DNA of 64,000 nucleotides from Alphaproteobacteria bacterium (GTDB lineage: Bacteria > Pseudomonadota > Alphaproteobacteria > UBA7887), in contig CBDCGL010000011.1 in the NCBI GenBank assembly GCA_965216755.1, positions 4,480,001 through 4,544,000 on the forward strand, given 5' to 3'. The position numbers and the translations under genes are program-made. This document shows positions 9,413 through 63,984 of this stretch, one piece after another (position 1 is the first letter of the stretch; each line of letters begins with the position of its first letter). A model generated the notes under the pieces. That model did not search any database. It was not told where the DNA came from and worked only from the letters and a program-made list of their open reading frames with translations.

Positions 9413-9565
9413 AACCGCACTGCCTGATCGGCCGCGCGCAAGGACGCCGATAACATCTGTCATCTTTCTGTGCGCAATCAATCGTGGCGCTGACACGTCT
9501 CTTATACGGGAGACGGCGCGCGCAGCCGTCGCTTTGCCGTGGAAGCTTGCCAGGAGGGGCGGTTC

Positions 9566-37576: not shown

Positions 37577-37590
37577 GGAGTAGGCAGATT

Positions 37591-39473: not shown

Positions 39474-39481
39474 CGAGCGGT

Positions 39482-43277: not shown

Positions 43278-43325
43278 ATAATGTCGTTTCGGTATCGAGT
43301 TAGGCAGCGTCTGGCCGGGACCCGC

Positions 43326-44180: not shown

Positions 44181-44266
44181 CGGGCGGTCGAAACGGCGGC
44201 TCGACTTTCTCTCATTGGCATCGCCCCGAACGGATTGGTCGGGGCCAAGATCATGGGTACCTTGCA

Positions 44267-44920: not shown

Positions 44921-44950
44921 TGAGCCACAGCGTGAGGATAGACGTTGACC

Positions 44951-48637: not shown

Positions 48638-48658
48638 GCTCTGGGTAGGCTAGCCGCC

Positions 48659-51600
48659 GTGCGCGTTCTGTTCTGGATCGTCACGGGCATTCTGGTCGTG
48701 TCGCTGGTTGCGATCGGCGGTACCTATGGCGCGCTGCAGACCAATACCGGGCGCGACTATCTGTCTGCCCAAGTCGAAGCCCTGACCCGCGGTACCGACA
48801 ACCATGTGCGGATATCCGGACTGCAGGGGCATGTGCCATTCGATTTTGCTGCCGATGAAATCTCCGTCGCCGATGGCGATGGGGTTTGGTTGACCGTCCG
48901 TGGCCTGGTGCTGGACTGGTCGCCACAATACTTGGTTGGCCGCGTGTTCCGCGCCGAGCGTTTCGCCGTCGAGGAAATTGCCCTGGATCGGGCGCCGCGC
49001 TTGTCAGCAGCGCAGTCCTCAGCGGATTCGGATGCAGACGCCGGCATGGCGATACCGCTGGGGATCGATATTCAGAGCATCCAATTGACTCGGGTCGTGG
49101 TCGGCGCCGCGCTCGCGGGACGCGATGTCGTGTTTGCCGTTGATGGCGAGGCGGCCATCGATCTACCGGCCCAACAGCTTCACGTCGCCATGAAGCTCGA
49201 CAGGTTAGATGGCGTGCCCGGGCGGGCCCGGATCAACGGCACATTTGCCACTGTTACCGAGACGCTGACTCTTGATATATCGATCGACGAGGCGGCCGGC
49301 GGGTTGCTTGGCGCGTTGGCCGGGATGCCCGATCTGCCTGCGGTCACGATGGCGTTGGCCGGCAACGGCCGCCTTGACGACTGGCAGGCAACGCTCGACG
49401 CCCGGGTGCAAGGCCTGGCTGCCGTGACCGGGCAGGCACGCTTGGCCGCCATGCCCGGCGGGCGACAGGCTGAGGCAACATTGGACGCCGATGTCGCCGG
49501 GTTGCTACCCGCCAACCTGCGGCATTTGCTGCGCGATGGCGTTCATGTCGTCGCCTCGTCTCAGTTGATTGATCGCGGTCCGATCGATATCGACCTGCTA
49601 CGTCTCGAAACAACCGCTGGCGCAGCGACATTGTCCGGAACCGTCGACATCGAAGCGCAGCGTGTTGATATGTCCGTTCAAGCCGATGTGGGCGATTTGG
49701 CGGTCGCTGCGCCGTTGATTGGACAAGACATAGCGGGACGCGCGATTCTTGAGGCCGACCTGCACGGGCCTTGGATGTCGACGGTGGCCGAATTTCGTGC
49801 GCGCGCCGATGACCTGGTGCTGACCGATGCCGCGGTCGGCACGATCACCCTTGACGGTGTTGTCCGGCCCGACGGTGGAGACTGGGGTGCCGCCGGGACG
49901 GAGATCGCAGTGAGCGCTGATGGGCACCTCGACGATGTCATGGTCGCCGGCGCCGAGACGGTTTTGGCGGCATTGGGCAACGACGTCGGACTCGCGGCAG
50001 AAGCCCGGGTAAATCAACACACGCAGCTTGTTCTTGTCGACTCTGCCACCGTGCAAACAGCGACCATGGTTCTGTCGTCGGCCGGCCGCGTCGAACTGAT
50101 GGATGGCCGCATGCGGTTCGCCGTGCGCGGTGAGGTGCCTGACTTGGTGCCGTTTGCGCCACTTGCGGGCACGGCACTCGCCGGCGGCATCGGCCTCGAT
50201 GCCGAAATTGAGTTTGGCCAGGCGATGCCAGCAGTTATCGCGTTCAGCGTCGACGGCAAGGAGATGCGCTCAGGCGTCCCGTTCGCTGACGCTTTGATTG
50301 GGACGGCACCGATGGTGGCCGGGGTCGCGGAGATCGATCCCGGGGGCGCGGTGACCGTACGCGAAGCCCGATTGCAAGGGGCGTCGGTGTCGGCCGATGT
50401 TGCGGGCACGCTTGGCGCCGACGGCCATGTTGATGCGATGGTTCAGGCAGCATTGCCCGAACTTGCCGCGCTCAGCGATGCCACCGGCATGGGCGTGGCC
50501 GGCTCCTTCGATGTCAGTGCCGCGCTTAGCGGGACAGTCGCGGCGCCTGCCGCGGTGGTCGATTTCGGATTGCGCGACGCCGTGGTCGACCAATCTCCGC
50601 CGTTGAGCGCCACGGGGCGTATCCATGCCGCCGATCTAACGGGAGCGATTAACGGTCGTGCAGCAATCAATGTAGGCCTTATGGATACCGAAACAACGGC
50701 TGCGTTTGACTATGCCATGGTTGAAGAGGCTGTGTTGATCGACGACATCACGGTCGATGCGACCGCATTGAGAATAGGCGGCGACCTAAGCGTGCCGCTC
50801 AATGGTGGTGCGGCAATTGGCGCGTTGACCGGTCAGGTGACGGATCTGAGCCCCTGGGGCGCGTTGGCGGGTGTAGATGCCGGCGGCCATGTTAGGTTTG
50901 ACTTGGCCTTGCGCGCCGATGCCGGCGGCCAGGGTTTCCAACTCGCCGCAAATGGCGAATCGCTTGTGATGGCCGACAACCCGGTGTCGCTTGCCGCGGT
51001 GGCCGTTAATGTCACGGGCCGTCCCGATCAGTTCGAGTTCGACGTTGACCTTGATGGCAATCACGACCGTCCGATTTCGCTGCAGAGCGCCGGCAACGTG
51101 GCGCGGACATCCGACGGCGGGCAACAGCTGCGGCTGGCTCGGCTCGACGGCCGATACGGAGATATTCCCGTGCAACTCGCCGAGACGGCGGTGATCGATT
51201 TTCTGGGCGGCGCGGTTTCCGTTGAGAATTTCGCGGCGACGGTCGCGACCGGCACCGTGCGCGCACGTGGCCGCTACGGTGAAGAACGCATCGTCTTGAA
51301 TGCCGCGCTCGCCCAACTTCCCGTTGCGCTGGTGGCGCCGGACATTGCCGGCACGGTGGACGTGCAGATTGACGCGGATTTGACGGCAGGTTCACCACGA
51401 CTCGATGGCCGGGCGGAGCTTGTCGGCCTGCGCGTGCAAGATGACTCGATAGGGCCGTTGCCCGGGATCGATATCGGCGCAGACTTGACTTGGCAGGGGC
51501 AAAGTGCGGCCGTTGACATTGCGGCCACTGGCGTGCCCGGTGCCACGATCAGCGCCGGTTTCAGCCTGCCGCTGGGCACCGACGGCGTATCACCCTTGCC

Positions 51601-52915
51601 ACAATGGTCCAGCTCAGGAGAACTAAAAGGTCATGTCTCGGTCGATGCCGCCTTGGAGAAGTTGGCCTTTTTGATTCCGGACGAGAACAGTGTCGTACGT
51701 GGGGCACTGGCGGTTCAGGCCGATATTACCGGCAACATCGCCGAACCCGAGGTTCGCGGGACCACGGCCCTGAGCGGCGGCTATTACGAGAATGTTGCGA
51801 CGGGCACGATTGTCGACGATATCGAGCTGCGGATCCAAGGTGACGATCGTCGGATAACGATTGTCGAGCTCACGGCAAACGATGGTGGCGACGGTCGGAT
51901 CAACGGACACGGGCATATCGACTTGGATGCCGCGACTGATTTCCCGGTTTCATTTGATGTCGAGTTTGATCGCTTTGAAGCTCTGCGCAGCGACGATGCC
52001 ACCGCCGCGGCGTCGGGGGCGCTAGCGGTGCGCGGTCCGACCACGGCGCTTGCGCTAACGGGCGGTGTTACTGTCGGACCCGCGGAAATCCGCATTCCGG
52101 ATTCTGCGCCGGCGGGGGTCACGACATTGGATGTGATCGAAGTTAACGGCCAGGAGGGCGCCGGCGATGACATAGCCCAGCGGGAGCCGAAACGGGAGTC
52201 GCCAATCGCACTGGATATCGATATCAATATGCCCGGCCGGGTGTTCGTCCGTGGTCGCGGCCTGACTTCGGAATGGCGGGGACAACTCAGCGTCACGGGA
52301 ACGAGCGATGCGCCGCTGGTGCTCGGCACCTTACAGGTCGTACGGGGGCAATTCGAACTGATCGGCCGGCTATTGGACCTGGAACGTGGGGTGATTACTT
52401 TTGACCAGGCGGCGGTCAATGACCCGGGGTTGGACATCCGCGCGGTTGGCGACGCGGATGACATCATTGCAGTGATCTTGGTCTCAGGGCGCGCGTCGGC
52501 GCCAGTGTTGGAGTTGACCAGCGAGCCGCCGCTGCCGTCAGACGAAGTTCTGGCGCGGGTCCTGTATGGCAAGAGTGTCGGCAACCTCTCACCCATTCAG
52601 GCTTTGGGCGTGGCTCGCGGCCTGGCCACTTTAACCGGCGTGGGATCGGGTCCCGGGTTTTTGGACAAAGTACGCGGCGTCACCGGGCTTGACACCTTGG
52701 ACGTGCAGTCGGGGGGCGAAAGCGTTGACGAGGGTCGGTTGCGGGCCGGGAAATATATCGCTGATGGGGTTCTGTTGTCCGTTGAGCAAGGGCTAGCTCA
52801 GGGTAGCACGCGCGCCACATTGGAAGTGGATATCACACCAAATATTTCAGTTGAAACGAATGTTGGCGCCGATGCCCAAACTGGGATTGGCGTCAACGTC
52901 AAAACCGACTATTGA
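48659..52915 (+). CDS. tamB: TamB (DUF490)
   Basis: N-terminal TM, long beta-taco body, VFVRGRGL, SEPPLPSDEVLARVLYG, and AGKYI. Follows tamA. Confidence 0.93.
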   Translation: MRVLFWIVTGILVVSLVAIGGTYGALQTNTGRDYLSAQVEALTRGTDNHVRISGLQGHVPFDFAADEISVADGDGVWLTVRGLVLDWSPQYLVGRVFRAERFAVEEIALDRAPRLSAAQSSADSDADAGMAIPLGIDIQSIQLTRVVVGAALAGRDVVFAVDGEAAIDLPAQQLHVAMKLDRLDGVPGRARINGTFATVTETLTLDISIDEAAGGLLGALAGMPDLPAVTMALAGNGRLDDWQATLDARVQGLAAVTGQARLAAMPGGRQAEATLDADVAGLLPANLRHLLRDGVHVVASSQLIDRGPIDIDLLRLETTAGAATLSGTVDIEAQRVDMSVQADVGDLAVAAPLIGQDIAGRAILEADLHGPWMSTVAEFRARADDLVLTDAAVGTITLDGVVRPDGGDWGAAGTEIAVSADGHLDDVMVAGAETVLAALGNDVGLAAEARVNQHTQLVLVDSATVQTATMVLSSAGRVELMDGRMRFAVRGEVPDLVPFAPLAGTALAGGIGLDAEIEFGQAMPAVIAFSVDGKEMRSGVPFADALIGTAPMVAGVAEIDPGGAVTVREARLQGASVSADVAGTLGADGHVDAMVQAALPELAALSDATGMGVAGSFDVSAALSGTVAAPAAVVDFGLRDAVVDQSPPLSATGRIHAADLTGAINGRAAINVGLMDTETTAAFDYAMVEEAVLIDDITVDATALRIGGDLSVPLNGGAAIGALTGQVTDLSPWGALAGVDAGGHVRFDLALRADAGGQGFQLAANGESLVMADNPVSLAAVAVNVTGRPDQFEFDVDLDGNHDRPISLQSAGNVARTSDGGQQLRLARLDGRYGDIPVQLAETAVIDFLGGAVSVENFAATVATGTVRARGRYGEERIVLNAALAQLPVALVAPDIAGTVDVQIDADLTAGSPRLDGRAELVGLRVQDDSIGPLPGIDIGADLTWQGQSAAVDIAATGVPGATISAGFSLPLGTDGVSPLPQWSSSGELKGHVSVDAALEKLAFLIPDENSVVRGALAVQADITGNIAEPEVRGTTALSGGYYENVATGTIVDDIELRIQGDDRRITIVELTANDGGDGRINGHGHIDLDAATDFPVSFDVEFDRFEALRSDDATAAASGALAVRGPTTALALTGGVTVGPAEIRIPDSAPAGVTTLDVIEVNGQEGAGDDIAQREPKRESPIALDIDINMPGRVFVRGRGLTSEWRGQLSVTGTSDAPLVLGTLQVVRGQFELIGRLLDLERGVITFDQAAVNDPGLDIRAVGDADDIIAVILVSGRASAPVLELTSEPPLPSDEVLARVLYGKSVGNLSPIQALGVARGLATLTGVGSGPGFLDKVRGVTGLDTLDVQSGGESVDEGRLRAGKYIADGVLLSVEQGLAQGSTRATLEVDITPNISVETNVGADAQTGIGVNVKTDY

Positions 52916-52925: not shown

Positions 52926-55421
52926 TCAATCGGCAGAAGGCGGCGTCTGTGACAGGGCCAGTGGCGCGGCAGCCAGCGCCGGCGGAAAGTCTCCGATATG
53001 GTAGTTGTGGCATTCCGTGCAGCGATCGCCGGCCAGTTCATGCTTATGGCATGCAGCGCAGGTTGATTTGTCCAATGAACGGAAATTACTCGCGAATTGG
53101 GCGGGTTGGCGGTGGTCAAAACTGGCCATGTACGCTGCTGCCGGATCCAGGATGTGGCAAGTGAGGCATCCGGCCTCGTTCAACAGGCTGAAATGGGGGA
53201 CATGCGCGTAGACGCTGAATCGCTTGTCATTTGGCTGTGGCGGCACGGTCAGCCAATTGATGAGGAACCCGCCATTTTGGCCCTTGCGGTCGTCGACGCT
53301 GTGGCACTTGGTACAGGAGCCGACTGTTTTTGAGTTGGTGAGTAGTTGTGCCAGCGGTGCGCCAAGGGGATCAGCGCCGCCGATCATGCCGGACAGGTCA
53401 AGCCATGCGCGCATGAACCCGTCGGCATGATCGCCAGGTCGGTAATACAAGCCATAGTCTTGCCGATACCAGCCGCCAGCATTGCTCCAGGCTTCTGGGG
53501 CGACCGGCCTTAGCGCTTGCGGCAGCGGTGTCACGTCCACGTCCGCCACCGGCGCCGACGCGCGGTCGTTGCTGTCCGGCATGTCGCCCGCGTTGCCGTC
53601 CGAAAGGCTGATTTCATCGTCGTCTGCCAGCAGTCCTTCGTCCCCCAGTAGGTCGCCGTCGTTGCCCAGCAGGTCGCCACCGTCTGCTAGCAAATCATCG
53701 CCCAGCAAATCACCATCGTCCGCCAGCAGATCGTCGTCGAGCAGGCCGCCAAGGTCGCCATTGTCGGCTTCCGCGGTCGGTGTATCGAATAGGGTCTCGG
53801 CATCGTCAGCGGCGCCGTCGCTGTCGAGCAGGCCGCCAAGGTCCAGCTCTTCCGTTGTTTGGGCGGGCGTCTCGGCAAGGTCACCAGTCGCCTCCGGTTC
53901 CGACACGTGGCTGGCGATTTCCGAGGCCGTTGGCCCCATGACGATGTCGCCCGCCGCGTGGCGCGCCAACTCGGTGCCCAAGTCTGGAAACCACTCGCTT
54001 TGTGCCGCCAAGACGGCATCGGTTGGCAGCATGCCGATCAATGATGCGACTTGGTCACTTGTTAGCTGTCGCCCAGCCACTCGTGACAGTCGATCGGCAT
54101 ATGCGTCGTGGCCGTCGACGACAATTGACCCGAGCATTTTTTTGACGCCCCACGCGACGCGGGCGACGGCGGCCAATTGGTGGTCGTCTGCGTCCAACAA
54201 ATCGAGCAGGTCCAGCGTCGACACCTCGTCCAGAGCGTCGGCGACATCGGGGTCCGCGGCCAGTAGCACACGCACGAAGGGCGTGATCGGGCCGTCGGCA
54301 TAATAGGGCCAATGGCCGATCTCAACATTGCGGGCGTCGAGGGTCTGCAGGTCCAGACCCGGCAACGCAATAACCGGCAGTCCTTTGACACCCGCGCGGC
54401 CCTCGCCGGCGATTTGTTTGCCGTGGCACGCGCGGCAAGTTTGGTCGAAGTCCTTCACCAGCATGTAGGCTCCGCCCGTGTCGGGTTCATGGCAGCCGGT
54501 GCAGGCCGTTGGCGCGTCGACGGTGTCCGGTTCCCTAAAATGCTTACCGATATGACCGACATGGTCGAAAATAATCCGCGTTCGCCTTTGATAAGGAAAC
54601 GACTCAAACTGCGGATGACCCTGGACAAACGTATCAAATGCTCTTTCGTGACATGTGTGGCAGTGCAGGTTGGAAATCTCGTCCAAGGTATAGCGCTGCC
54701 CGTGATGCTCTCGATGACACGTTGAACAGGCCAAATCTTGGTCCTTCGGCTGTTGGCCGAATACGAACTTGGCCACTGTCGGCATAATTGAAACTTGCTG
54801 CGGTCGTGGCATGTTCTGCAAGCGGGTCGTGACCGGCTTCAATGTTTCCGGCGCCAAGCTGTGTGCTTTGGTCGCGTAGTTGCCAAGCCGATGGCACGCA
54901 AGACATGGCGCGCTGTCTTCCGCTGCGCTCCGCGGTAAGAACGCTGCCTGCAGCCAGCCAATAAGTCCGTGCTCGGAACCAGTGTGGCATCCGTCGCAGG
55001 TCGCCACGTCGCCATGTTGATAGGTCACTTCGCCGGGCACGACCACACGCTCCGCCAGGCGACCATTGAGCAGTAAGAGGATGGCACCAACGGTCAGGCA
55101 CACAAGCCACAGTGTTGTCAAACCGCGTCGGGCACGATCACTACGTTTGGGGACGCAGCGGTCTATCGGACGGGCGCAGCGACCATCAGGAAGCGGGCCG
55201 TCGGTGCAACGGCCGCCATATTGCGGTGCACGCGTGCACGACCATCGATCGTCGGTATTGAGTGGAATGCATTCAAAATCGGCCCGGCATTGGCCACGCA
55301 AATCCGGTCCGATCCGGCATGTGCGACCGTCTTGGGCGCGTCCGCAGACCCATGGCTGCGACGGCCGTTCATAAGCACTTTCGCGGTGACCAAACCGCTG
55401 CCAAAGGGATGACATACTCAC
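52926..55421 (-). CDS. membrane-anchored decaheme c-type cytochrome with N-terminal Cys-rich repeats
   Basis: Ten CxxCH motifs (CDGCH, CLACH, CSTCH, CHTCH, CTGCH, CRACH, CTKCH, CLTCH, CAACH, CTECH) after a single TM helix; 8 further Cys before the TM. Confidence 0.9.
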   Translation of the reverse strand: MSMSSLWQRFGHRESAYERPSQPWVCGRAQDGRTCRIGPDLRGQCRADFECIPLNTDDRWSCTRAPQYGGRCTDGPLPDGRCARPIDRCVPKRSDRARRGLTTLWLVCLTVGAILLLLNGRLAERVVVPGEVTYQHGDVATCDGCHTGSEHGLIGWLQAAFLPRSAAEDSAPCLACHRLGNYATKAHSLAPETLKPVTTRLQNMPRPQQVSIMPTVAKFVFGQQPKDQDLACSTCHREHHGQRYTLDEISNLHCHTCHERAFDTFVQGHPQFESFPYQRRTRIIFDHVGHIGKHFREPDTVDAPTACTGCHEPDTGGAYMLVKDFDQTCRACHGKQIAGEGRAGVKGLPVIALPGLDLQTLDARNVEIGHWPYYADGPITPFVRVLLAADPDVADALDEVSTLDLLDLLDADDHQLAAVARVAWGVKKMLGSIVVDGHDAYADRLSRVAGRQLTSDQVASLIGMLPTDAVLAAQSEWFPDLGTELARHAAGDIVMGPTASEIASHVSEPEATGDLAETPAQTTEELDLGGLLDSDGAADDAETLFDTPTAEADNGDLGGLLDDDLLADDGDLLGDDLLADGGDLLGNDGDLLGDEGLLADDDEISLSDGNAGDMPDSNDRASAPVADVDVTPLPQALRPVAPEAWSNAGGWYRQDYGLYYRPGDHADGFMRAWLDLSGMIGGADPLGAPLAQLLTNSKTVGSCTKCHSVDDRKGQNGGFLINWLTVPPQPNDKRFSVYAHVPHFSLLNEAGCLTCHILDPAAAYMASFDHRQPAQFASNFRSLDKSTCAACHKHELAGDRCTECHNYHIGDFPPALAAAPLALSQTPPSAD

Positions 55422-55424
55422 GGC

Positions 55425-56249
55425 TTACGAGAACGCATAGACCAGGACAATATGAACCAAGATGAGGATCAGAAGCACGGTGCTGACTGGCACGTGGACA
55501 AACTGCCAACGGCGCAACAAAGATTGCATCGCGTATTGAAAATCCAAGTCGTCTTTTGTGCGCACCAAATCGGCAAGCTGGTCCATCACGGCGCACTCGC
55601 CAGCGTCCAGATAACGTTCGAGGCCGCGCATTTGATTGAGCAACCGGGTGCGTGGTCGGCCGGACAGCATGGCGTGGCGCCAGAAATTTCGGGGCCGATC
55701 AAAAAAGCTATGCAACTGGTCGCTGTAATAATCCGCGATCGTCGTCGAGCGGGCGTCCTTAACAGAATTGATCGCCAGAGCTTCGGCTTGCGTCGCCAGT
55801 TTGCGCCGGTAGATCGGAATCCGTTCGTAAACGACATTCTCACCCCGCACAGACAGCCGGGGCGGCACGGCGCGGAACAGAAGCCAACCGACCAAACCGC
55901 TGGCGACGACGAAAGCAAAAGCAATGGCGAGAACGGTTTCGAACGGCCCGTCCGGTACTTGCCAGTCGACGTGCACGCCGAAGAGAAACGCACAGACCAA
56001 GCCGATATAGACGTGCAGTTGCAGCCAAGCGGACGACGAACCCAACGGCAAAAACGGCAACCGCCGGCGAATTTGATAGCAAGCCAAGAAGAGGATCGTC
56101 AGAAACAATGTCCAGCCGGTCAAGAATGATGGATTGCGCAGCGTCGATGCATAGATCGCGTGCACGCCGGCGAGTACGATCACGATCACAACAGCCGTCC
56201 CCGCATGCACCATTCGGCGCCTGGCAAAGGTGATCATCTGTGGATCCAA
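55425..56249 (-). CDS. integral membrane protein, probable diheme cytochrome b (ferric-reductase-like TM domain)
   Basis: About five TM helices, with two H-x13-H pairs (HVYIGLVCAFLFGVH and HVPVSTVLLILILVH). Confidence 0.75.
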   Translation of the reverse strand: MDPQMITFARRRMVHAGTAVVIVIVLAGVHAIYASTLRNPSFLTGWTLFLTILFLACYQIRRRLPFLPLGSSSAWLQLHVYIGLVCAFLFGVHVDWQVPDGPFETVLAIAFAFVVASGLVGWLLFRAVPPRLSVRGENVVYERIPIYRRKLATQAEALAINSVKDARSTTIADYYSDQLHSFFDRPRNFWRHAMLSGRPRTRLLNQMRGLERYLDAGECAVMDQLADLVRTKDDLDFQYAMQSLLRRWQFVHVPVSTVLLILILVHIVLVYAFS

Positions 56250-57946
56250 GCCATCAACTTGTCCGGTGTTCTGAGATCGATGCGAACCAAGGCATCATTC
56301 GGACACGCGCGCTGGCACGCGGGACCACCCAATTGATCGGCACAAAGGTCGCATTTGGTTGCCCGCTCGATGGGCGCATTGGTGGCCTGATCGATGACGA
56401 ATTCGCCAGCCCGATTACGGATGTTCACCAACCGAATATTATTGTAGGGGCACGCACTCGCACAGGTCCCACAACCGATGCATGTGTCGTCGTTGATCAC
56501 CACAGTGCCGCCCTCTGTATCGCGGTGGATCGCGCCGGTTGGACAGCCGATGAGGCAGACCGGATCGACGCAATGCATGCAGGCATTGGCGATCATGAAA
56601 TGATCATAGTGCGGGCCGTGGCGGACAAATCGCGGGTTGTTGCCATGCGCGGCGGCGCACGCGCGCACGCATTCGTCGCAGCGTGTGCACCGGTCGACGT
56701 CGATGACCATAGTCTGTGTGCCGTTAATAAACCGATTGTCGACCAAAAACTCCAGCATGGCCGACTCGATGCGCCCTTCGGACGTGCCACGCTGCCACGC
56801 CGATTGAACGCCGCTGCGGGTTTCAACCGGTTCCGGCAGCGCCGCGGCCGGCATGGTTGGCAAAATGTGGTCGGCGACCAGATCACCGGGGATGCGCAGC
56901 ACGTCGACATATCCTGTCGCGCGCATGGTGCCTTGGAATGAAATCTGCTGATCGTTACGCCAATTGTGGACGATTTCCCTCAGGCCGAACGTGCCCCCGG
57001 GGCCCAAATAGCCGACCGTGCGATGGCCGTGGTCGACCCGTTCGGTGACCCGCGCAAATCCCGACCGCACAATAATCAAGCTATCGGCGTGTTCATCTTC
57101 GCCAGCGATAATCGGCTCGCCGGCGAGCCTTTCAGCATGTGTCCGTTCGCCCGCTGCCTTGTAGGCCGTGTACCATTCGAAACTGCCATAAGAGGCAAAC
57201 TGCGTGCGCGGCGCAATCTCCGCGATTTGCCCGGGGGTCAGGTGGGAGAGCAGGGGTGTGTCGCGAAGCTGGGCCGCCAAACTGCGCTCGCGATATAGCT
57301 GATCAATCTGTTCACGAAACTTGCGATCGCGACGGCGGATATCACGCAGACCTTGCCATCGAATTTCCAGCAGCTCCGAATCGCCGTCGGCGTAGATCGT
57401 TGCCGTTCGAGGCGCGCGCGATATGGCGCCAATCTCGCCGAACATTTCGCCCGCGCCTATGAGGGCGGTCCGATGGTTCTTCGTCACTTGCGCCGGATCG
57501 GGCAACGCGACGCGGATATCGTCGTCACCGTCGCCACGGACAATGACTTGCTCGCGCCGTCCCAAGTCACGGACTTCCGGTTGGCCAGGGTTGTTCCAAA
57601 GCTGGCTGATCGCCGACCACATCCCCCGCCGACTCGCTTCTTGGCGACCCAACGCTTTGGCAGGTAGCCGTGGGCCAAGCACGACCCGCGCGGCACCGGT
57701 CAGCACAACAAACGCCGAATTGCCATAATCCTCGGCGCGCACGACAATGTCGCCATAGCTATAACTGCGAATGCGCGTGTCATTGCGGATGATATCGCGC
57801 AAAGGCGCTGTATCTGGGAAGCTTGACGGATCGACTTGGGCAAAGGGATCGTGCGCCAAAACGCGATCAATGTCGGCTTCCGACATCGACGTGCTAAACG
57901 GATTTTCCCAACGGTCCGGACGATGAATTTCTACCGGTCGCGCCAT
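56234..57946 (-). CDS. two cyclic-nucleotide-binding domains fused to a four-cluster 4Fe-4S (DmsB/NrfC-type) module
   Basis: GEMFGEIGAISRAPRTAT phosphate-binding cassette and a second degenerate cNMP domain. Sixteen Cys: CTRCDECVRAC, CMHCVDPVCLIGCP, CIGCGTCASACP, and CDLC...PACQRACP. Confidence 0.9.
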   Translation of the reverse strand: MARPVEIHRPDRWENPFSTSMSEADIDRVLAHDPFAQVDPSSFPDTAPLRDIIRNDTRIRSYSYGDIVVRAEDYGNSAFVVLTGAARVVLGPRLPAKALGRQEASRRGMWSAISQLWNNPGQPEVRDLGRREQVIVRGDGDDDIRVALPDPAQVTKNHRTALIGAGEMFGEIGAISRAPRTATIYADGDSELLEIRWQGLRDIRRRDRKFREQIDQLYRERSLAAQLRDTPLLSHLTPGQIAEIAPRTQFASYGSFEWYTAYKAAGERTHAERLAGEPIIAGEDEHADSLIIVRSGFARVTERVDHGHRTVGYLGPGGTFGLREIVHNWRNDQQISFQGTMRATGYVDVLRIPGDLVADHILPTMPAAALPEPVETRSGVQSAWQRGTSEGRIESAMLEFLVDNRFINGTQTMVIDVDRCTRCDECVRACAAAHGNNPRFVRHGPHYDHFMIANACMHCVDPVCLIGCPTGAIHRDTEGGTVVINDDTCIGCGTCASACPYNNIRLVNIRNRAGEFVIDQATNAPIERATKCDLCADQLGGPACQRACPNDALVRIDLRTPDKLMAWIHR

Positions 57947-57967
57947 ACCAGACGAGGCCGCGCCGCG

Positions 57968-59020
57968 CTAGCGGGCTGGCTTACCCTTGTAGCTTTCCGG
58001 CGCGGGAAGCAGGGCATCGAGCCCGGCAAGGTCGGCGCCGTCATTGGATTCGGCAAATTGTCGTGCGGCGGCTTCGATCTCATCGGCGGCCGCGTTCAGC
58101 GCATCCGCGTTGTTCAGCTTGAGTTTGACGCTGCCCGCGACCGCCAGCATGGCGTCAACCTCGGCAATCGACGCGGCTTTGCCGATTTGCTGCAGCCGCT
58201 GAGCCGCGGTCTTTGCCCGTTTTGCCATTGCCTTTGCATAGTCGGCGTTGGCCGTCGCCTTGGCGACGCCGCGCAGGGCGAATGTCAGGTCCAGGGCGCG
58301 CCCGACGACATACATGACGCGCTTGCGCGCGTCAGTCGCCTCGCGATTGGCTTTGCCTTCGGAAAACCAAATATTGTGACGCACTTCGCCTTGCGACCAG
58401 GCAACGAGCTCAAAAGCGCTGCCAGCCGGGTGGCCGCCTTCATTGACGAGTTTTTCCTCTGGCACGGTATGGCAGCCATAGCAGTTCGATGCCCAATCGA
58501 CGATCCACAACGGCCGGATCAATCCGGCAGCCTCGACCGTTGCTAGTCGTTCCGCCTTATGTTCAGGTGTCTCCGATTCTGCGGTGACATCCTTGCCGCC
58601 AAAATCGCTGTGGGGATCATTCCAATCCTTGGCCGCGCCGTGGCACGATTCACAACTGATTCCGGCAATTGCTTTTGTTTCACCGTCTGAAACAGCTTCG
58701 GTGAAATGACAACTCAGACAAACGCTCTCGTCTTTGATGCGGCGCAGGCCCAGCTTGTCGGCGATTTCGCGGGCCTTGTCCTCGCGCGGCATGGTCGTAA
58801 AGGTCTTGGCGTGATGCGTCTCTCGCCACACTTCGACCTCTTCCTTATGGCACTCGCCACACGTGTCGGGCCCCAGCACCATGGCCGGATCAGTTGCCGC
58901 ACCCCCAGCCGCGGCCGGTGCGGCCCAAAGCAGCATCACACCGCCGGCAACGGCGGCTGCCGCGCTGGCAAGTTGATTGTCCATGCCAGGACTTACACTC
59001 AAGGACATCTTGACCGGCAT
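57968..59020 (-). CDS. periplasmic tetraheme cytochrome, c554-like
   Basis: RBS GGGAGG, signal peptide, CGECH, CLSCH, GISCESCHG, CYGCH, and a C-terminal helical domain. Confidence 0.88.
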   Translation of the reverse strand: MPVKMSLSVSPGMDNQLASAAAAVAGGVMLLWAAPAAAGGAATDPAMVLGPDTCGECHKEEVEVWRETHHAKTFTTMPREDKAREIADKLGLRRIKDESVCLSCHFTEAVSDGETKAIAGISCESCHGAAKDWNDPHSDFGGKDVTAESETPEHKAERLATVEAAGLIRPLWIVDWASNCYGCHTVPEEKLVNEGGHPAGSAFELVAWSQGEVRHNIWFSEGKANREATDARKRVMYVVGRALDLTFALRGVAKATANADYAKAMAKRAKTAAQRLQQIGKAASIAEVDAMLAVAGSVKLKLNNADALNAAADEIEAAARQFAESNDGADLAGLDALLPAPESYKGKPAR

Positions 59021-59135
59021 TCGCTCGCAATCCTCCCATTGAGGCGCCAGTTGATTATGTTTGGCGCCATGACCTCGCCAGGCGAGAATAGCATACTCGT
59101 TGACGCCTTCGGAATCCGACTCCCCGTGTCAACAT

Positions 59136-60404
59136 TTACGCATCAAGAACCAAGTCGGTCTTGGGAATCGCGATGCATGTCAGGCACGTACCGGCTTTGA
59201 CCTCGGCGGTCGGCTCAGTCAGATAGGTGACTTCGCCCGTCCGGATTGCCGTCACACAGGTTCCGCAATTGCCGACCCGGCAGCCAAAATCTATGGGTAC
59301 GGTGTTGGCTTGCGCCAGATCCAAAAGCGATCCTGCCGCGCCAGTCCATTTCGCCGTGCGGTTTGAGCGTTCAAAACTCACGGCCAAAGGGGTCTCGTCT
59401 TTGTCGTCGGCGACACCGGGTGCAGCGGCGCCTTGGACGCTGGCCGCCGCAAACGCTTCGCGATGCACGCGATCGTCCGGAACGCCCCATTTTCGGAGAT
59501 CCCCGCTCACTTGGGTCATCATCGCGGGCGGCCCGCAGATAAAGAAATCGTAGTTGGACGAGGGCAGTGTGTCTTTCAGATGATCGATCGAGATATGGCC
59601 CTTCAGATCGTAATCGGACTCGCCGTCCAGTCCCGGCCGTGGGCTGCTATAGGCGACGGTGACGTGAATGTTTTCGTTATCCAGATCAAAATCGCGTAGG
59701 CGCTCTTTGGTAAGATGCTCCAAGCCATTGCGCACACCGTAGAAAACCCAAACTTCACGCTTGCTGCCTGTTTCCACAATCGCGTCGAGCATGCTCAATA
59801 TGGGCGTGATGCCGATGCCGCCGGCGATCAACACCAAAGGCGAGTTTTCCAGCGGATCGATCGTGAAGTTGCCGCTGGGCGCGATCACGTCGATCAGGTC
59901 GCCCGCGTGCATGCCCCGATGCAAATGATTGGAAACCAGCCCCTCCGGCGCCGTATCGTTCTTGGCCGGGGCGGCCAGTCGCTTGACAGTGATTTGATAC
60001 TCGTCCGGCTCCGGCGTCCATTGCGACAGTGAATAGCAGCGCACCACCGGCCGCGGCTGGTCTTTCATGGCAAACCGAAAGGTCAGGAACTGGCCGGGTC
60101 GGTACGGGGGCAGGGGGCGATGATCGTGAGGCACCAAGCGAAACGAGGCGATATTGTCCGCTTCCGGAACGACTTCCGAGATTTCGAACTTGCGATAACC
60201 GCTCCAGCCAAAATTGACCCGATCCGTTTCCCCCTGAGTGGTCGCGGCCGCGGCCATCACATTTTGCCTGAGCACTTCCAGGGACAAGCGCCGCCGGTCG
60301 CGTTCGAAGGTCGAGCGCCTGGCAGATTCGACCAGCATCATCGTGGCTTGCGCCAATACCAACGCGATGATCAAGGCACCGGCAATTTGAACCAGCAATG
60401 CCAT
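59136..60404 (-). CDS. membrane-anchored FAD/NAD(P)H-binding reductase with C-terminal 2Fe-2S domain
   Basis: N-terminal TM, PGQFL, RCYSLS, GLVS, IAGGIGITP, FFICGP, and CRVGNCGTC...C. Confidence 0.92.
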   Translation of the reverse strand: MALLVQIAGALIIALVLAQATMMLVESARRSTFERDRRRLSLEVLRQNVMAAAATTQGETDRVNFGWSGYRKFEISEVVPEADNIASFRLVPHDHRPLPPYRPGQFLTFRFAMKDQPRPVVRCYSLSQWTPEPDEYQITVKRLAAPAKNDTAPEGLVSNHLHRGMHAGDLIDVIAPSGNFTIDPLENSPLVLIAGGIGITPILSMLDAIVETGSKREVWVFYGVRNGLEHLTKERLRDFDLDNENIHVTVAYSSPRPGLDGESDYDLKGHISIDHLKDTLPSSNYDFFICGPPAMMTQVSGDLRKWGVPDDRVHREAFAAASVQGAAAPGVADDKDETPLAVSFERSNRTAKWTGAAGSLLDLAQANTVPIDFGCRVGNCGTCVTAIRTGEVTYLTEPTAEVKAGTCLTCIAIPKTDLVLDA

Positions 60405-60468
60405 CACGCGCGTGGCTCCTTGGTTGGTCTTGACGATGGGACGTTCACGGCAGCCAGACCGAGTAGAA

Positions 60469-61887
60469 CTAGAACTTAACCTGAATCTCGGTTCGCGCGC
60501 CAAAACCGGCGCCCTCTGTCTCGGTCATCGAGCCGAACAAATCCAATTGCCAAAACGCCTGATTGTGAATTTGCAATTGATAGCGGCCGCCCAGCGCAAA
60601 CGCGTCTGAGTCAGACCCGTCGGCTGATTTCCGCGCGCCAAACTCAAGCACCAATTGTTCACGGTTGTTTGGGACCAAGAACCATTGGTGGCCGACCGAA
60701 AACCCGATAACGTCCTTGGCGCGATTGCTGAGCGCCGAACCAAAACGGCCGAGGCGCTGCGACGCGAACAGGATTCCGGCGCGTCCCAGCGGCCCGCCGA
60801 CCTGCGGATCACGGGCGGCCATGGTGAATTCATCCAATGCTGCGAACGCGGTGGCGTAGAGAATGTTGTCCGTACCCAAGGGTGTCGTCGACACATCGGC
60901 GAATAACAGATAGCCGTCCTTGGCAGCACGCGTGTCGCCGTCGAATGCCTGCGAGGTCATGAAGCGAAACGACGATGTCCAAAGCCCGAAACGTTGTACC
61001 GCGCTGAGACCCAAATAGGCCGCGTCACCGCCATTGTCGTCGGACGCCACATAGATTGCGTCCAAAGCCACGGTGCTCTTGTAAAAATCCGCCTCGTTGA
61101 ACAGCCCAAACAATTGCGCGTTGCTGTCCACGTCACTGTCGCCGCGGCTCACCTCGCCCCAACCATAAAGCCCAGAGACCCGCAAGTTCGCGCCGCCGGG
61201 AACGGTCAGGGAATTGCGCACGATGCCAATCGAGTCGAGCGCGGTATCGTCGATCAGGATCCCTTGTTGATAGGAGATCGCCTGACGCCCGACCGCAAAG
61301 CCATAGTCGAGGGTGCCGGAATCGTCCCGGTCCAGGTCGGGAAACAGTTCGCCGAAATCGCCTTCGAAAAACAGGGTGCGCACGTTGCCGTTGAAGCTTT
61401 CAAACGAGCCGCGCTCTGAGTCCGGCCCCAGCGTATAGCCGGTGTAGTTGACGCCTTGTCGCAACGGGTTGATTCCCAACAGCAATCTTTCCGTGCCCGT
61501 GAGCTGCAGATTGGCAAACAGATCGAGCGAGTTGGCCCATTCGGTGATTGGCTTGCGATCACCGCGGTCGAAGCTCTGCAAAGCCGTACGATAGGTTCCA
61601 AAGACCCACAAGGACGGTCGCCAGACGGCGCCGGTTGGCAGTTCCCAGCCCGGCTCGATATTGCCGACTTCCAGGAACGGGTCGCCAAATATCACCAGTG
61701 GTTTCGCCTGTGGCGGCAGCTCATCGACGACGTAGGGTACGGGCTCATCGGGTAGACTACGGCCGTAGATGCTGACCGCCGCGTCAACGGACCCGCATTC
61801 GAACGCCACCCATCCCGCCGCTCCAGCGATCGCCCATGCTGTAAAGTGCCACCGTCGGCGACACCAATCGCCCACCCGTTCCGCCAT
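60469..61887 (-). CDS. putative outer-membrane beta-barrel (porin-like)
   Basis: Signal-like N-terminus, alternating aromatic/polar beta-strands, GRQ motif, and C-terminal beta-signal TEIQVKF. Confidence 0.72.
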   Translation of the reverse strand: MAERVGDWCRRRWHFTAWAIAGAAGWVAFECGSVDAAVSIYGRSLPDEPVPYVVDELPPQAKPLVIFGDPFLEVGNIEPGWELPTGAVWRPSLWVFGTYRTALQSFDRGDRKPITEWANSLDLFANLQLTGTERLLLGINPLRQGVNYTGYTLGPDSERGSFESFNGNVRTLFFEGDFGELFPDLDRDDSGTLDYGFAVGRQAISYQQGILIDDTALDSIGIVRNSLTVPGGANLRVSGLYGWGEVSRGDSDVDSNAQLFGLFNEADFYKSTVALDAIYVASDDNGGDAAYLGLSAVQRFGLWTSSFRFMTSQAFDGDTRAAKDGYLLFADVSTTPLGTDNILYATAFAALDEFTMAARDPQVGGPLGRAGILFASQRLGRFGSALSNRAKDVIGFSVGHQWFLVPNNREQLVLEFGARKSADGSDSDAFALGGRYQLQIHNQAFWQLDLFGSMTETEGAGFGARTEIQVKF

Positions 61888-61907
61888 TTGCGACCTCGAC
61901 GACGTTA

Positions 61908-63842
61908 TTATTCGATTTCAAACTCGACTATCTTACGAGCGGCGACCGTGTGTCCGTCAACCAGGGCGTCGCCGACCGATCGTGGGCTCATGTTGAAGTC
62001 GAAGCCGACATCTTGAATTGCGTGGATCAAGTTTATCGGCACCATGCCAACAACGATTTCGACCTCAGCCGTGTAGGGACCGTAAACAATTAGTTCTTCA
62101 CCCGGCACCGTATAGGCGGTGCGGCGGCTGCCGAGCGGTTCGATGCCGCGCTTGTGGATGCGCGCGCTAAGTGGCCGACCGGTCAGAATGGTCGACCGTG
62201 TCGCCGGGCGAACAAACGGCAGCACATCGAGTGAATAGTTGGCGGCCAAGACTTGCTCGCGTTCGCCGCCGCGATTGTTCAGGGTCACAAAAAACGATTG
62301 CAGGCTATACAGCTGATCATCCAGCGGCACATCGCCACTGAGCACCAATTGCGAATGGGAATCGCGCAGGTCGCCGTTGCTGTCCAGGTCGCCAGAGACG
62401 AACACGGGTTGATCATCGCTGTCATATACGGTCACCCGCAGCCAGACGAGACGTTCCGCAATAAAGCCGGTCGGCACATTGTGTCCGTCGGTCCCGTTCC
62501 TAATTTCGACGTTGAGGCGAATGCCGTTGCGATCAGCTTTTTCAATGATCACCTCGCCGATCTTGAAGCCGGCACTGAGTACTTCTTGGCGCTTCGCCTT
62601 GGCCCAGGCGAGCAGCTCGAATTGGTCATCAAGGATATCGCGCGCGTCATAGCGATCATCGATCGTGCGCCAGCGTTCCGGAAATGTGTAATCCTCCGGC
62701 ACGTTGTCTTCGAACGAATCAGTGCCCCAACCGGCCTCATAATCGAACGTCAGCCACTCCTCCAACGTGGCCATGCGCGCGGCTTCGACATTGTGCGGAA
62801 AGATCCCCGGATGCACGATTGAATGGTCCGGACCGGCGAAATAATGATTGGTCAACTTGCGCGGCTCTGTCGCCACGCCGCCGATCTCTGCCGCCGGCCC
62901 GTGTTCGTATCCGGACACCACGCCCTGCACCTTGCCCATATGGCAATCGTGGCACGTGGCGCCGCCATCGGCACCGCTATTGCGCAAATCGTTGGCCGGT
63001 GACGTCTTGAATTCACTAAATGCTTCTTCCAGTCGAAACCCGTTGGGCAGTGTCACATCGTGGCAGGTACCGCAAAAGCCCGGCTCGACCATCTGGAAAA
63101 AACGTTCGGCCTCGGTGTGGATCTTGCGACCCGGCTGGTCCGCGTCGGTGACCACTTTGTAACGATTCCGGTTGTCGAGGACCCGATTGAGTTCGTCACC
63201 CCCCGTTGGGCCGCGCACCGGCTTTAGGATGTCGCCTTGGTCGATGGCCATGCGACCACTGATCTTGCCATACGCTTGGCTGACACGATGACAGACCACG
63301 CAGGTGATGCCTTCGCGTGACGTGGGATGCCGGTCGAGATTGTTAGTGGCGATGCCTTCGCCGAGATTCATGCCCACCTGGTTGTGACAGCGGATGCAGA
63401 AGTCACCCACCGTGCCACTCAGGCGATCATAGCTAAATCTCTGCATGGCCATGTAAATTGGGCTCAGCTGGGCATAGGAATGTTGTGAGACGGACCACTC
63501 GCGATAGTGTTTCGGGTGGCAGGTCATGCAGGTCGTCGCCGAGGGGTAGCGATCTTCCAGAAACAGGGCTTCGTGGGCCGCGGCCGCAGTCGAACCCGCT
63601 AGCGCACCCGGTTCGTCTTCAGCTTCAGTATCAGCGTCGGCCGTCGGTTCATCGAGTGGTACTTCGTCGTCGCCGAGCAAGTCGTCGCCACCCAAAAGGT
63701 CGTCGCCGCCGAGCAAGTCATCATCTGCAAGCAGCGTGTCGTCGCCAAGTAGGTTGTCATCTTGCGCAAGACTTGGCCCGGCCAAAGTAAGCGCCGCCGC
63801 CATGCCGATCGCCATAGCAACTCGCGAGAACCTGATTTGCAT
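61908..63842 (-). CDS. exported pentaheme c-type cytochrome (c554/c-prime-like N-terminal region) with acidic repeat
   Basis: Signal peptide ending SLA-Q; CMTCH, CIRCH, CVVCH, CGTCH, CHDCH; YREWSVSQH; GHNVPTG in a beta-rich C-terminal domain. Confidence 0.9.
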   Translation of the reverse strand: MQIRFSRVAMAIGMAAALTLAGPSLAQDDNLLGDDTLLADDDLLGGDDLLGGDDLLGDDEVPLDEPTADADTEAEDEPGALAGSTAAAAHEALFLEDRYPSATTCMTCHPKHYREWSVSQHSYAQLSPIYMAMQRFSYDRLSGTVGDFCIRCHNQVGMNLGEGIATNNLDRHPTSREGITCVVCHRVSQAYGKISGRMAIDQGDILKPVRGPTGGDELNRVLDNRNRYKVVTDADQPGRKIHTEAERFFQMVEPGFCGTCHDVTLPNGFRLEEAFSEFKTSPANDLRNSGADGGATCHDCHMGKVQGVVSGYEHGPAAEIGGVATEPRKLTNHYFAGPDHSIVHPGIFPHNVEAARMATLEEWLTFDYEAGWGTDSFEDNVPEDYTFPERWRTIDDRYDARDILDDQFELLAWAKAKRQEVLSAGFKIGEVIIEKADRNGIRLNVEIRNGTDGHNVPTGFIAERLVWLRVTVYDSDDQPVFVSGDLDSNGDLRDSHSQLVLSGDVPLDDQLYSLQSFFVTLNNRGGEREQVLAANYSLDVLPFVRPATRSTILTGRPLSARIHKRGIEPLGSRRTAYTVPGEELIVYGPYTAEVEIVVGMVPINLIHAIQDVGFDFNMSPRSVGDALVDGHTVAARKIVEFEIE

Positions 63843-63984
63843 CGGAAAATTCCCCGTTCCCTGACGTTTCCGAGCTTGCAACTTTGCCCTGAAACCGATC
63901 GACTCTCCACCACGTCTCATTATACGGCGATCGTGTTGAACCCGACCACCTCAACGCCATGTTAGGGGGCATGGCGCGCCTATC

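Follow-up and report, generated by a model that had tools for sequence, protein, structure and literature searches.

A copy of the ptdABCDEFG operon in an alphaproteobacterial genome as a candidate quinone-independent route for NAD(P)H electrons across the inner membrane

What is accomplished by seven adjoining genes that together encode an NAD(P)H-oxidising flavoprotein, an iron-sulfur (Fe-S) protein, a membrane protein with candidate b hemes, three multiheme c-type cytochromes and an outer-membrane β-barrel? This question is raised by a minus-strand cluster, co-directional and head to tail, that spans positions 52926-63920 of a 64,000-nucleotide stretch of alphaproteobacterial DNA (assembly GCA_965216755.1, contig CBDCGL010000011.1), the whole of which is referred to here as the window. 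An initial annotation, made from the sequence alone, had read the cluster as a trans-envelope electron wire. Its seven genes and its parts list were borne out by open reading frames (ORFs), Pfam and motifs, as was its count of 19 c-type hemes (CXXCH motifs: 5 in ptdA, 4 in ptdD and 10 in ptdG). The cluster is a canonical copy of the already named ptdABCDEFG operon, and its architecture is not new. We favour, with slightly more confidence than doubt and leaving the acceptor outside that judgement, a role in NOX-like, quinone-independent electron export from NAD(P)H to periplasmic hemes. The earlier interpretation is thereby partly supported: the evidence sustains its inner-membrane half and supports neither a wire across the outer membrane nor a particular terminal acceptor.

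The name ptdABCDEFG comes from a 2023/24 preprint on marine Alphaproteobacteria of oxygen-deficient zones (ODZs) (bioRxiv 10.1101/2023.11.21.568154). In its accessible portion, PtdA is a pentaheme cytochrome with a β-sandwich, related to T. tepidum c552; PtdB a porin; PtdC an FAD/NAD(P)-binding oxidoreductase; PtdD a periplasmic tetra-heme protein; PtdE a cyclic-nucleotide (cNMP)/Fe-S protein; PtdF a ferric-reductase-like membrane protein; and PtdG a periplasmic deca-heme protein. The window cluster has the same seven gene types in the same order, with the same domain content, the same 5/4/10 heme counts, the same tie of PtdA to T. tepidum c552 and the same C-terminal β-sandwich, and nothing essential differs. 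The same portion of the preprint reports ptd in nitrite oxidisers, Nitrospirales and ODZ bacteria, with high transcription in an ocean ODZ and high ptdAB at a depth with known Fe reduction; it guesses at extracellular electron transfer or nitrogen cycling, stating that the function "remains completely unknown" (bioRxiv 10.1101/2023.11.21.568154). A literature search for other names or for a characterisation of the cluster returned just this preprint. The initial annotation knew of no characterised system built in this way, and that remains correct, since ptd has had no functional test; as a claim to novelty it lapses, the same architecture being already in print.

To the published description we add four clusters in PtdE, the Cys domain of PtdG, a split into core and accessory genes, the type of barrel, a bookkeeping of histidines, the cyclase neighbours and a modelled docking of PtdE on PtdF. 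Three of our results depart from the portion of the preprint available to us, which gives PtdE two Fe-S clusters rather than four, calls PtdG periplasmic where we also predict a cytoplasmic 8-Cys domain, and gives a marine/high-salinity range where we also find soil- and freshwater-type record titles (Chthoniobacterales, Opitutus, Rariglobus). A Verrucomicrobia porin-multiheme cytochrome cluster (PMC5615132) was considered as a possible ptd system and rejected, since its cytochromes have eight hemes and its barrels at least 20 strands.

The system is widespread. A scan with a 15-sequence PtdE alignment against a one-genome-per-species collection matched at least 583 stretches, and at least 565 genome sites encode a PtdE relative. 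Of 8000 candidates scored at the protein level, more than 4570 reached E ≤ 0.001; the 119 non-self relatives listed are 50-63% identical across phyla and carry source names such as Alphaproteobacteria, Planctomycetes, Phycisphaerales and Zixibacteria, among others. Record titles from the genome scan name Alpha- and Gammaproteobacteria, Planctomycetota, Verrucomicrobiota, Acidobacteriota, Myxococcota, SAR324 and Gemmatimonadales, while a few others (Bifidobacteriaceae, Flavobacteriales) may be binning errors. By record title, cultured carriers are Nisaea denitrificans, N. nitritireducens, Hwanghaeella grinnelliae, Planctomycetales bacterium ZRK34 and 'Ca. Uabimicrobium amorphum'.

Synteny was assessed in the best 80 PtdE sites with up to 10 kb of flank, the set to which all counts out of 80 refer. 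The closest of these are Alphaproteobacteria/Rhodospirillaceae records with 45-73% identity over all seven proteins, in a comparison that did not include the preprint's own sequences. A tblastn search with the seven proteins of the window recovered E at 80/80 loci, F at 78/80, G at 77/80, D at 69/80, C at 67/80, A at 45/80 and B at 43/80, with many of the misses at contig ends. The order ABCDEFG is colinear at 22 loci and carries a 0.6-1.8 kb insert between B and C at five; seven loci have the order cbaDEFG, with A-B-C divergent from D-G, 19 have CDEFG, three have CEFG, and 24 are otherwise rearranged or truncated. Recurrence of the gene order across phyla marks the cluster as a genuine unit, beyond chance, by the kind of synteny check that the initial annotation had suggested. 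At 35 loci ptdA, and with it the ptdA-ptdB pair, is absent, and 13 of these have at least 4.7 kb of sequence on both sides. Where both genes are found they are adjacent at about 42 of 43 loci; ptdC parts them at one locus (L036), and ptdC plus a gap of ~1 kb at another (L073). From the tblastn counts and the loci that lack A and B within ample flank, we take C, E, F and G as a constant core to which D is usually added and A and B, as a pair, optionally. When 966 ORFs from the 80 loci were clustered all against all, no further neighbour family turned up in more than 10 loci. Among complete homologue ORFs, five hemes are encoded in 37 of 40 PtdA (2, 2 and 3 in the rest), four in all 68 PtdD and ten in 60 of 63 PtdG (6, 7 and 9 in the rest). 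At the Hwanghaeella grinnelliae locus (L038) the order is C-E-F-G-A-B-D, and the identity of A, B and D is lower (27-41%).

Within the core, PtdC has the features of an electron entry point. Pfam assigns it FAD_binding_6, NAD_binding_1 and Fer2 domains, the last being a plant-type [2Fe-2S] domain at the C-terminus; its RxYS, GGxGxxP and C-G-P motifs and the four 2Fe-2S cysteines are all 100% conserved in 59 sequences, and 55 of these have an N-terminal transmembrane (TM)-like segment. Its best NCBIfam match is the reductase module of the NO-inducible flavohemoprotein (Hmp), at 226.4 bits and below the cut-off of 432; no NCBIfam model attains its curated cut-off for any of the seven proteins. 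PtdE contains two cNMP_binding stretches and a Fer4_11 domain in Pfam (43.1 bits, cut-off 26.2), reaches no equivalog cut-off in NCBIfam, and has no TM, Sec or Tat signal segment by hydropathy and charge. The cysteines of its Fe-S domain fall into four groups (420/423/426/430, 456/459/464/468, 489/492/495/499 and 532/535/544/548). Because all 16 are invariant in 15 of 15 aligned homologues, the domain is predicted to hold four clusters, not two, and to be a ferredoxin domain of DmsB/NrfC type, in agreement with the two cNMP domains and four [4Fe-4S] clusters first proposed for this gene. A database copy of PtdE (P0001) has 550 residues and our ORF 570; the longer form looks right, since residues 1-20 are conserved in homologues (R9, P10, W13, F17).

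From hydropathy and charge, PtdF is predicted to have five helices, with its N-terminus inside and a large loop, about residues 125-250, in the cytoplasm. In the NOX/ferric-reductase fold, two His pairs on parallel helices hold stacked b hemes. PtdF was initially described by a single H-x13-H motif; the motif is present, in two pairs rather than one, with H79 kept in 77, H93 in 78, H252 in 77 and H266 in 77 of 78 homologues. As TM3 and TM5 both run from inside to outside, H79 and H252 would pair at the cytoplasmic side and H93 and H266 at the periplasmic side, and this geometry suggests that PtdF binds two b hemes. The nearest Atlas cluster is named 'Ferric reductase like transmembrane component' (score 0.97). 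In Pfam, the PtdF of the window matches DUF4405 only, below threshold, and does not match Ferric_reduct (PF01794); its homologues give sub-threshold matches to DUF4405 (17/35), Ni_hydr_CYTB (12/35) and Ferric_reduct (11/35, best E 0.0015). A 35-sequence PtdF profile searched against PDB sequences found chance coiled-coil matches only, at E 0.36 or worse.

The link between PtdE and PtdF was examined by modelling of the complex, which scored 0.65 in three runs and 0.01 in the best of 3 controls. A mark of 0.65 is reached by 116 of 157 solved complexes and by 2 of 215 mismatched pairs, a calibration that is rough here since our own alignments were used. The runs share at least 92% of contacts, and partner predicted local distance difference test (pLDDT) values are at least 82. 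Residues 417-433 and 535-552 of PtdE, which include Cys groups I and IV, contact residues 62-76, 125-141 and 242-246 of PtdF in the model, and these PtdF loops flank H79 and H252; residues 107-116 of PtdE, a conserved loop of cNMP domain 1, contact the PtdF N-terminus. The model thus supports docking of PtdE on the cytoplasmic loops of PtdF; to our knowledge, no complex of this kind has been solved. Together with the conserved PtdC motifs and PtdF histidines, it speaks for the route across the inner membrane by an FNR domain and a bis-His di-heme-b protein that had been proposed at the outset. The pair is part of the assembly of reductase, Fe-S protein, cytochrome b and decaheme protein that the initial annotation had suggested modelling.

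The cNMP domains may place this relay under second-messenger control. All 15 aligned homologues keep F169, G170, E171, A174, R177 and R180 in domain 1 of PtdE, and T181-A182 is present; we take this cassette to be the counterpart of the phosphate-binding cassette of CRP. At 11 of the 80 loci, the first ptd gene has a gene for a class III adenylate/guanylate cyclase as its immediate neighbour. Ten of these are from Planctomycetota, with the cyclase divergent from ptdC, and one is from SAR324, where the cyclase is upstream of ptdA, co-directional and equipped with a 7TMR-DISM sensor. This adjacency fits control of PtdE by cNMP, and we infer from the domain content that gating of the relay is the probable purpose of these domains.

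On the periplasmic side, PtdG has ten hemes, and NCBIfam gave no decaheme family match for it at E ≤ 0.01. The hemes fall into two blocks (6+4); all 61 sequences compared keep at least 231 residues between the blocks, and in 42 of them this stretch is acid-rich. Its N-terminal domain of eight cysteines, each present in 83-86% of 64 sequences and missing in Pirellulaceae-type variants, has no Pfam match, gave no usable match in an Atlas search with residues 1-125, and belongs to no known family. Used alone as a query, the first 100 residues recovered 601 library representatives (E ≤ 1e-3). Among the 150 matches listed, with non-self identity of 45-63%, the domain always occupies the first ~110 residues of PtdG-like proteins; it therefore looks PtdG-specific, and it looks better conserved than the heme domains. 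Since heme attachment is periplasmic and six K/R precede the TM helix, the domain must be cytoplasmic. The early description of PtdG as a TM-anchored decaheme cytochrome accordingly stands for its one TM helix and was incomplete as to the N-terminus. At Pirellulaceae loci (L005, L011 and others) the PtdG variant lacks the N-domain cysteines, ptdAB is absent and a cyclase neighbour is present; this variant may be a distinct subtype of the system.

Clusters of D-D-L-L-type repeats occur in PtdA (15/40), PtdG (17/63) and, in weaker form, PtdE (5/73), and are absent from PtdB (0/43), PtdC (0/64), PtdD (0/68) and PtdF (0/77). Acidic repeats are found in both PtdA and PtdG of distant phyla, often in the same genome (L008, L012, L016, L025, L033, L049). 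We speculate that the acidic linker of PtdG lets its four-heme block span the periplasm, and that the matching repeats of PtdA and PtdG reflect a common partner. The tetraheme PtdD matches Pfam Cytochrome_C554 (PF13435) at 55.7 bits (cut-off 20.8) and PDB 1bvb at E 3.5e-8.

The optional pair has a different character. An AlphaFold2 (AF2) model of PtdA (36 sequences, pLDDT 77.9) has three parts: an acidic tail that is disordered, a heme region made of helices and, at the C-terminus, a β-sandwich (strands 426-643); a TM-like signal segment is at residues 34-52, and the tail has pLDDT <50 for mature residues 20-83. Its only meaningful PDB sequence match is 5ze8, the T. tepidum pentaheme c552 (E 5e-8), which is also its only fold match at E ≤ 0.001 (E 7.4e-12, TMt 0.66). 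In NCBIfam it scores 36.3 bits with ExtKL (cut-off 250) and 23.8 bits with the DmsE/MtrA-family model TIGR03508 (cut-off 192.2). The invariant cysteines of PtdA in 36 sequences are the ten of the CXXCH motifs, with no CXXCK. An NrfA/HAO-type enzyme was considered for PtdA and ruled out, as the Pfam and NCBIfam matches listed contain no NrfA family and Foldseek gave only 5ze8. For PtdB, which has no Pfam or NCBIfam match, AF2 (42-sequence alignment) predicts a barrel of about 18-19 long strands (mean pLDDT 84.5, predicted TM-score 0.79), in keeping with the β-barrel first assigned to this gene. Foldseek against the PDB is led by OccK2, OccK11, C. jejuni MOMP, chitoporin and AlgE (E 3e-11 to 7e-9, TMq 0.47-0.56), with no MtrB entry among the matches listed. 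MtrB has 26 strands.

Histidine counts bear on what the three cytochromes do. The conserved histidines outside the motifs equal the hemes in number in each: five in PtdA and four in PtdD, 100% conserved in 37 and 68 sequences, and ten of ten in PtdG, conserved at ≥98%. Neither PtdA nor PtdD has a non-motif Cys conserved at ≥80%. By this count, which gives each heme a spare histidine and leaves PtdA and PtdD no conserved extra Cys, the 19 c hemes all look bis-His and six-coordinate, as would suit a wire rather than a catalytic site.

These data allow us to propose a mechanism. PtdC, tethered to the inner membrane, would oxidise cytoplasmic NAD(P)H on its FAD and hand single electrons to its [2Fe-2S] cluster. 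PtdE would relay them through four [4Fe-4S] clusters, its cNMP domains tuning the relay to cAMP or cGMP, and would dock on the cytoplasmic loops of PtdF, whose bis-His b hemes (H79/H252 inner, H93/H266 outer) would carry the electrons across the inner membrane. PtdG, anchored at the complex by its 8-Cys domain and TM helix, would take them into the periplasm through a 6-heme block and then a 4-heme block on a flexible acidic linker, with PtdD, of four hemes, as a soluble carrier. PtdA, of c552/ExtKL fold, and the PtdB barrel would form an optional distal module at the outer membrane. Both the direction of flow and the cofactor content are deduced. A bypass of quinones is suggested by the gene content: no NrfD, CymA or NapC-type gene is found in the cluster in the window or conserved beside it at the 80 loci, so no quinol-oxidising subunit is at hand. 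The initial annotation was right that neither such a quinol protein nor a molybdoenzyme is present in the cluster, and none is conserved beside it.

Several observations weigh against this mechanism. The literature search found no experiment on any Ptd protein, the pass of the PtdE-PtdF pair is a model confidence and no measurement, and the match of spare histidines to hemes is a count, with no structure, which leaves ligation unproven; PtdA has two further His conserved at 95% and a Met at 97%. PtdF attains no curated family cut-off, so that the case for heme b is the geometry of its histidines, and the PDB profile search gave nothing relevant. Among longer proteins no fusion of PtdF with a reductase was found, a blank that is weak evidence. 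As for gating, the cassette of the second cNMP domain is non-canonical, with 18 residues (E324-R342) versus 9 in domain 1; the 64-kb window has no cyclase neighbour; and with 10 of 11 cases from one phylum the cyclase adjacencies represent few independent events. Outward electron flow dissipates the membrane potential and is the easy direction, inward flow working against the potential; the benefit to the cell is therefore unexplained.

Four other readings have to be set beside electron export to periplasmic hemes. PtdA might sit inside PtdB as an MtrAB/PioAB-type wire and pass electrons outside the cell to Fe(III), Mn(IV), humics or electrodes, the conduit that the initial annotation had in mind. 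The two genes are neighbours that travel together (A at 45 and B at 43 of 80 loci), the PtdA hemes are perhaps all bis-His, the disordered acidic tails of PtdA and PtdG could thread or bind the barrel, and ptdAB transcripts are high at the Fe-reduction depth in the accessible part of the preprint (bioRxiv 10.1101/2023.11.21.568154). Against this, the ~18 strands of PtdB match 18-strand, OprD-like substrate channels, with no MtrB among the matches listed; PtdA is a globular cap-and-stem protein with 5ze8 as sole fold match and falls far short of the DmsE/MtrA cut-off (23.8 bits versus 192.2); 35 of the 80 loci lack A and B, and 13 of those 35 have a flank of ≥4.7 kb at either end; and many record titles point to lineages that we take to be aerobic or facultative heterotrophs. 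The conduit is thus weakened, and we regard it as unlikely. We judge no more probable a periplasmic terminal reductase in which PtdA acts on an N-oxide, hydroxylamine, polysulfide or similar compound, PtdB is the substrate channel and PtdC-G supply low-potential electrons. MccSep, described in the available part of a 2025 preprint as a periplasmic polysulfide reductase with a Cys-ligated heme 2 and a selenocysteine, is a cap-and-stem relative within the ExtKL group, and the gene clusters of Geobacter ExtKL include the porin gene extI (PMC11976967, as far as its accessible text goes). The likeness of PtdA to MccSep goes through a published comparison of MccSep with c552; a D-G-H-N-V-P sequence in the PtdA stem recalls the reported D-G-U-P of MccSep, at a position unchecked by alignment. 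PtdB resembles substrate-specific channels, PtdC is nearest to the reductase module of NO-inducible flavohemoprotein (226.4 bits, below the cut-off of 432), and the accessible ptd preprint text notes ptd in nitrite oxidisers and ODZ bacteria (bioRxiv 10.1101/2023.11.21.568154). What speaks against catalysis is that PtdA has no conserved Cys beyond its five CXXCH and no CXXCK, and that its five spare histidines for five hemes are 100% conserved; with the catalytic Cys missing, no PtdA heme is obviously open or Cys-ligated. Foldseek returned no NrfA, HAO or octaheme enzyme, the ExtKL score is 36.3 bits against a cut-off of 250, and the CEFG core exists where A and B do not.

That same core is the best argument for an internal valve or oxidant generator, in which PtdC-G would serve cNMP-controlled redox balancing by passing electrons to a soluble cytochrome c and an oxidase, or to O2 with formation of superoxide, PtdAB being accessory. 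C, E, F and G are constant and the other three genes dispensable, NOX and Fre-MsrQ are built on a comparable plan, cNMP domains and cyclase neighbours are present, and the record titles include many lineages that do not reduce metals. Yet 14-19 hemes seem far beyond the need of such a valve, the data point neither to O2 nor to a particular cytochrome c, and no oxidase gene is conserved beside the cluster, so that we consider this improbable. Least likely of all, on energetic grounds, and in our view very improbable, is inward flow from periplasmic or external donors to cytoplasmic NAD(P)+, as in nitrite oxidisers or lithotrophs. In its favour, each type of cofactor can work in both directions, the c552 relative is termed low-potential in its paper's title, and ptd is reported in Nitrospirales in the accessible part of the ptd preprint (bioRxiv 10.1101/2023.11.21.568154); uptake would nevertheless work against the membrane potential with no ion-coupling subunit among the parts, and most named carriers belong to lineages that we take to be heterotrophs.

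We therefore retain export of NAD(P)H electrons to periplasmic hemes. If this mechanism holds, ptd would give bacteria, besides the NOX type, a second quinone-free way to pass electrons from NAD(P)H through the inner membrane, and one under second-messenger control. A bolder extension, which we think doubtful, is a cyclic-nucleotide-gated valve that leads NAD(P)H electrons past quinones to the cell surface at several hundred sites in at least seven phyla. If this is true, oxic and low-oxygen waters could owe extracellular reductant to an enzyme system so far overlooked, acting by Fe(III)/humic reduction or superoxide and present in common aerobic heterotrophs of sea, soil and freshwater, with the D-D-L-L linkers of PtdG and PtdA as tethers that bridge the periplasm and engage the PtdB barrel. 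The interest of the system lies in its being very widespread, strongly conserved and, by report, highly transcribed in an oceanic ODZ while its function has been established by no study.

Feature coordinates are collected in the table below. The true start of ptdA is likely Met27 at 63842, the start taken in the initial annotation, ahead of a signal-peptide-like segment; the window ends 80 nt past the longest ORF of this gene. For ptdC the most likely start is GTG 60407 or ATG 60404, since AAGGAG lies just upstream and homologue alignments begin there. This revision abolishes the ptdB/ptdC overlap and leaves that of ptdE and ptdF (16 nt) as the sole one, so that the one overlap first reported exists, between the latter genes and not between the former. 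The gap between ptdC and ptdD is 115 nt, and the other gaps are short with the revised starts. A simple promoter and terminator scan was uninformative (3 promoter-like sites versus 3.8 expected and 7 terminator-like sites versus 11.2, from shuffled controls); spacing and synteny suggest that the seven genes are co-transcribed. TamB (48659-52915) and an Omp85/TamA gene (46802-48637) converge on ptdG, which sets the end of the cluster there. This TamA (Omp85/POTRA)/TamB pair (46802-52915), with a stop codon 10 nt from that of ptdG, is probably unrelated to ptd, as it is not kept beside ptd at other loci. Elsewhere in the window, a His-Xaa-Ser-repeat-like protein gene (8636-10612; HxsA model 97.6 bits, below the cut-off of 121.65) adjoins one for a MauG/MbnH-like di-heme enzyme; a minus-strand ORF of 1093 residues (22879-26157) has no NCBIfam match at E ≤ 1e-10; and a Tad/Flp pilus assembly cluster (35205-45000) encodes CpaB, a secretin, CpaD, a MinD/CpaE-like ATPase with only weak MinD/Ssd-family matches below cut-off, and a TadA-family ATPase, followed by ORFs with no matches.

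Table. Features of the ptd cluster in the window, and cyclase genes at other ptd loci (positions given as locus:range).
Feature	Position	Strand	Basis
ptdA (g1), exported pentaheme cytochrome	61908..63842, ORF open to 63920	-	5 CXXCH, signal-like segment
PtdA acidic D-D-L-L-G repeat tail, residues 53-86 of long ORF	63663..63764	-	sequence
ptdB (g2), predicted outer-membrane β-barrel, ends ...KF	60469..61887	-	AF2 and Foldseek
ptdC (g3), TM helix + FAD/NAD(P)H + [2Fe-2S]	59136..60407, ORF open to 60503	-	Pfam, motifs
ptdD (g4), periplasmic tetraheme cytochrome, c554-type N-domain	57968..59020	-	4 CXXCH, PF13435
ptdE (g5), cytoplasmic 2x cNMP + predicted four-cluster ferredoxin domain	56234..57946	-	Pfam, NCBIfam
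PtdE cNMP domain 1 phosphate-binding cassette (FGE...R-T-A), residues 169-183	57398..57442	-	homologue alignment
PtdE Fe-S domain, residues 413-557	56276..56710	-	four Cys groups
ptdF (g6), five-helix inner-membrane protein, candidate di-heme cytochrome b	55425..56249	-	hydropathy, charge
PtdF TM3 with H79-x13-H93	55971..56030	-	homologue alignment
PtdF TM5 with H252-x13-H266	55431..55496	-	homologue alignment
ptdG (g7), 8-Cys domain + TM + 6-heme block + linker + 4-heme block	52926..55421	-	10 CXXCH
PtdG N-terminal 8-Cys domain: C26, 35, 45, 51, 62, 72, 82, 89	55155..55346	-	homologues
PtdG TM helix, residues 100-118	55068..55124	-	6 K/R directly upstream
PtdG acidic D-D-L-L-type repeat linker between heme 6 and heme 7, ~residues 520-625	53547..53864	-	sequence
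Cyclase genes beside ptd	L005:5550-7442, L011:4012-5847, L022:1826-3661, L040:2526-4424, L052:1302-3443, L055:5433-7265		
Cyclase genes beside ptd, continued	L063:6392-7231, L064:6203-7042, L068:5471-7033, L076:5539-7374, L078:3916-5358		

How the single parts compare with characterised proteins can be stated for each side of the envelope. MtrCAB, PioAB and MtoAB also have a barrel gene adjoining a multiheme cytochrome gene, and the ptd cluster likewise encodes a decaheme cytochrome; in contrast to these systems, the modelled PtdB is an OprD/AlgE-type barrel of ~18 strands and no MtrB-type sheath, PtdA has the globular c552 fold and is not MtrA-like, a CymA-type quinol dehydrogenase is lacking, and the porin pair is optional. 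With the PHC family (c552, Geobacter ExtKL/MccSep) PtdA shares a five-heme helical cap and an Ig-like stem. It is ~200 residues longer than c552, with an acidic tail, and by its sequence would lack both the heme-ligating Cys of MccSep (heme 2) and the Sec/Cys of its stem. ExtKL/MccSep are fed by a quinone-linked respiratory chain, not by an NAD(P)H module. Cytochrome c554 (CycA) of Nitrosomonas europaea resembles PtdD in its four c hemes and in the N-domain (PF13435/1bvb), a match at domain level only given an equivalog score of 42.5 bits against a cut-off of 400; PtdD has 350 residues versus 211. Whereas c554 has one five-coordinate heme, PtdD has four spare histidines for its four hemes, and no HAO gene is near the ptd cluster in the window. 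The ferredoxin domain of PtdE has the four 4-Cys groups of DmsB/NrfC-type proteins and differs in having neither Tat nor Sec signal.

The closest parallel is with NOX/ferric reductases and Fre-MsrQ, in which a cytoplasmic NAD(P)H flavoprotein feeds two b hemes outward without a quinone. Both likenesses lie in the core: an FNR-type FAD/NAD(P)H module is present as PtdC, in cis at 67 of 80 loci, and PtdF is predicted to carry bis-His pairs ~13 residues apart on TM3 and TM5, within the spacing of 12-14 on two parallel TM helices that characterises NOX and ferric reductases. PtdF differs from the NOX fold in having five predicted helices rather than six and in missing the Ferric_reduct cut-off. 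In ptd the parts are distributed over three proteins, the path from flavin to heme is predicted to include five Fe-S clusters as well as two cNMP domains, and the acceptor side is a c-type chain of 14-19 hemes.

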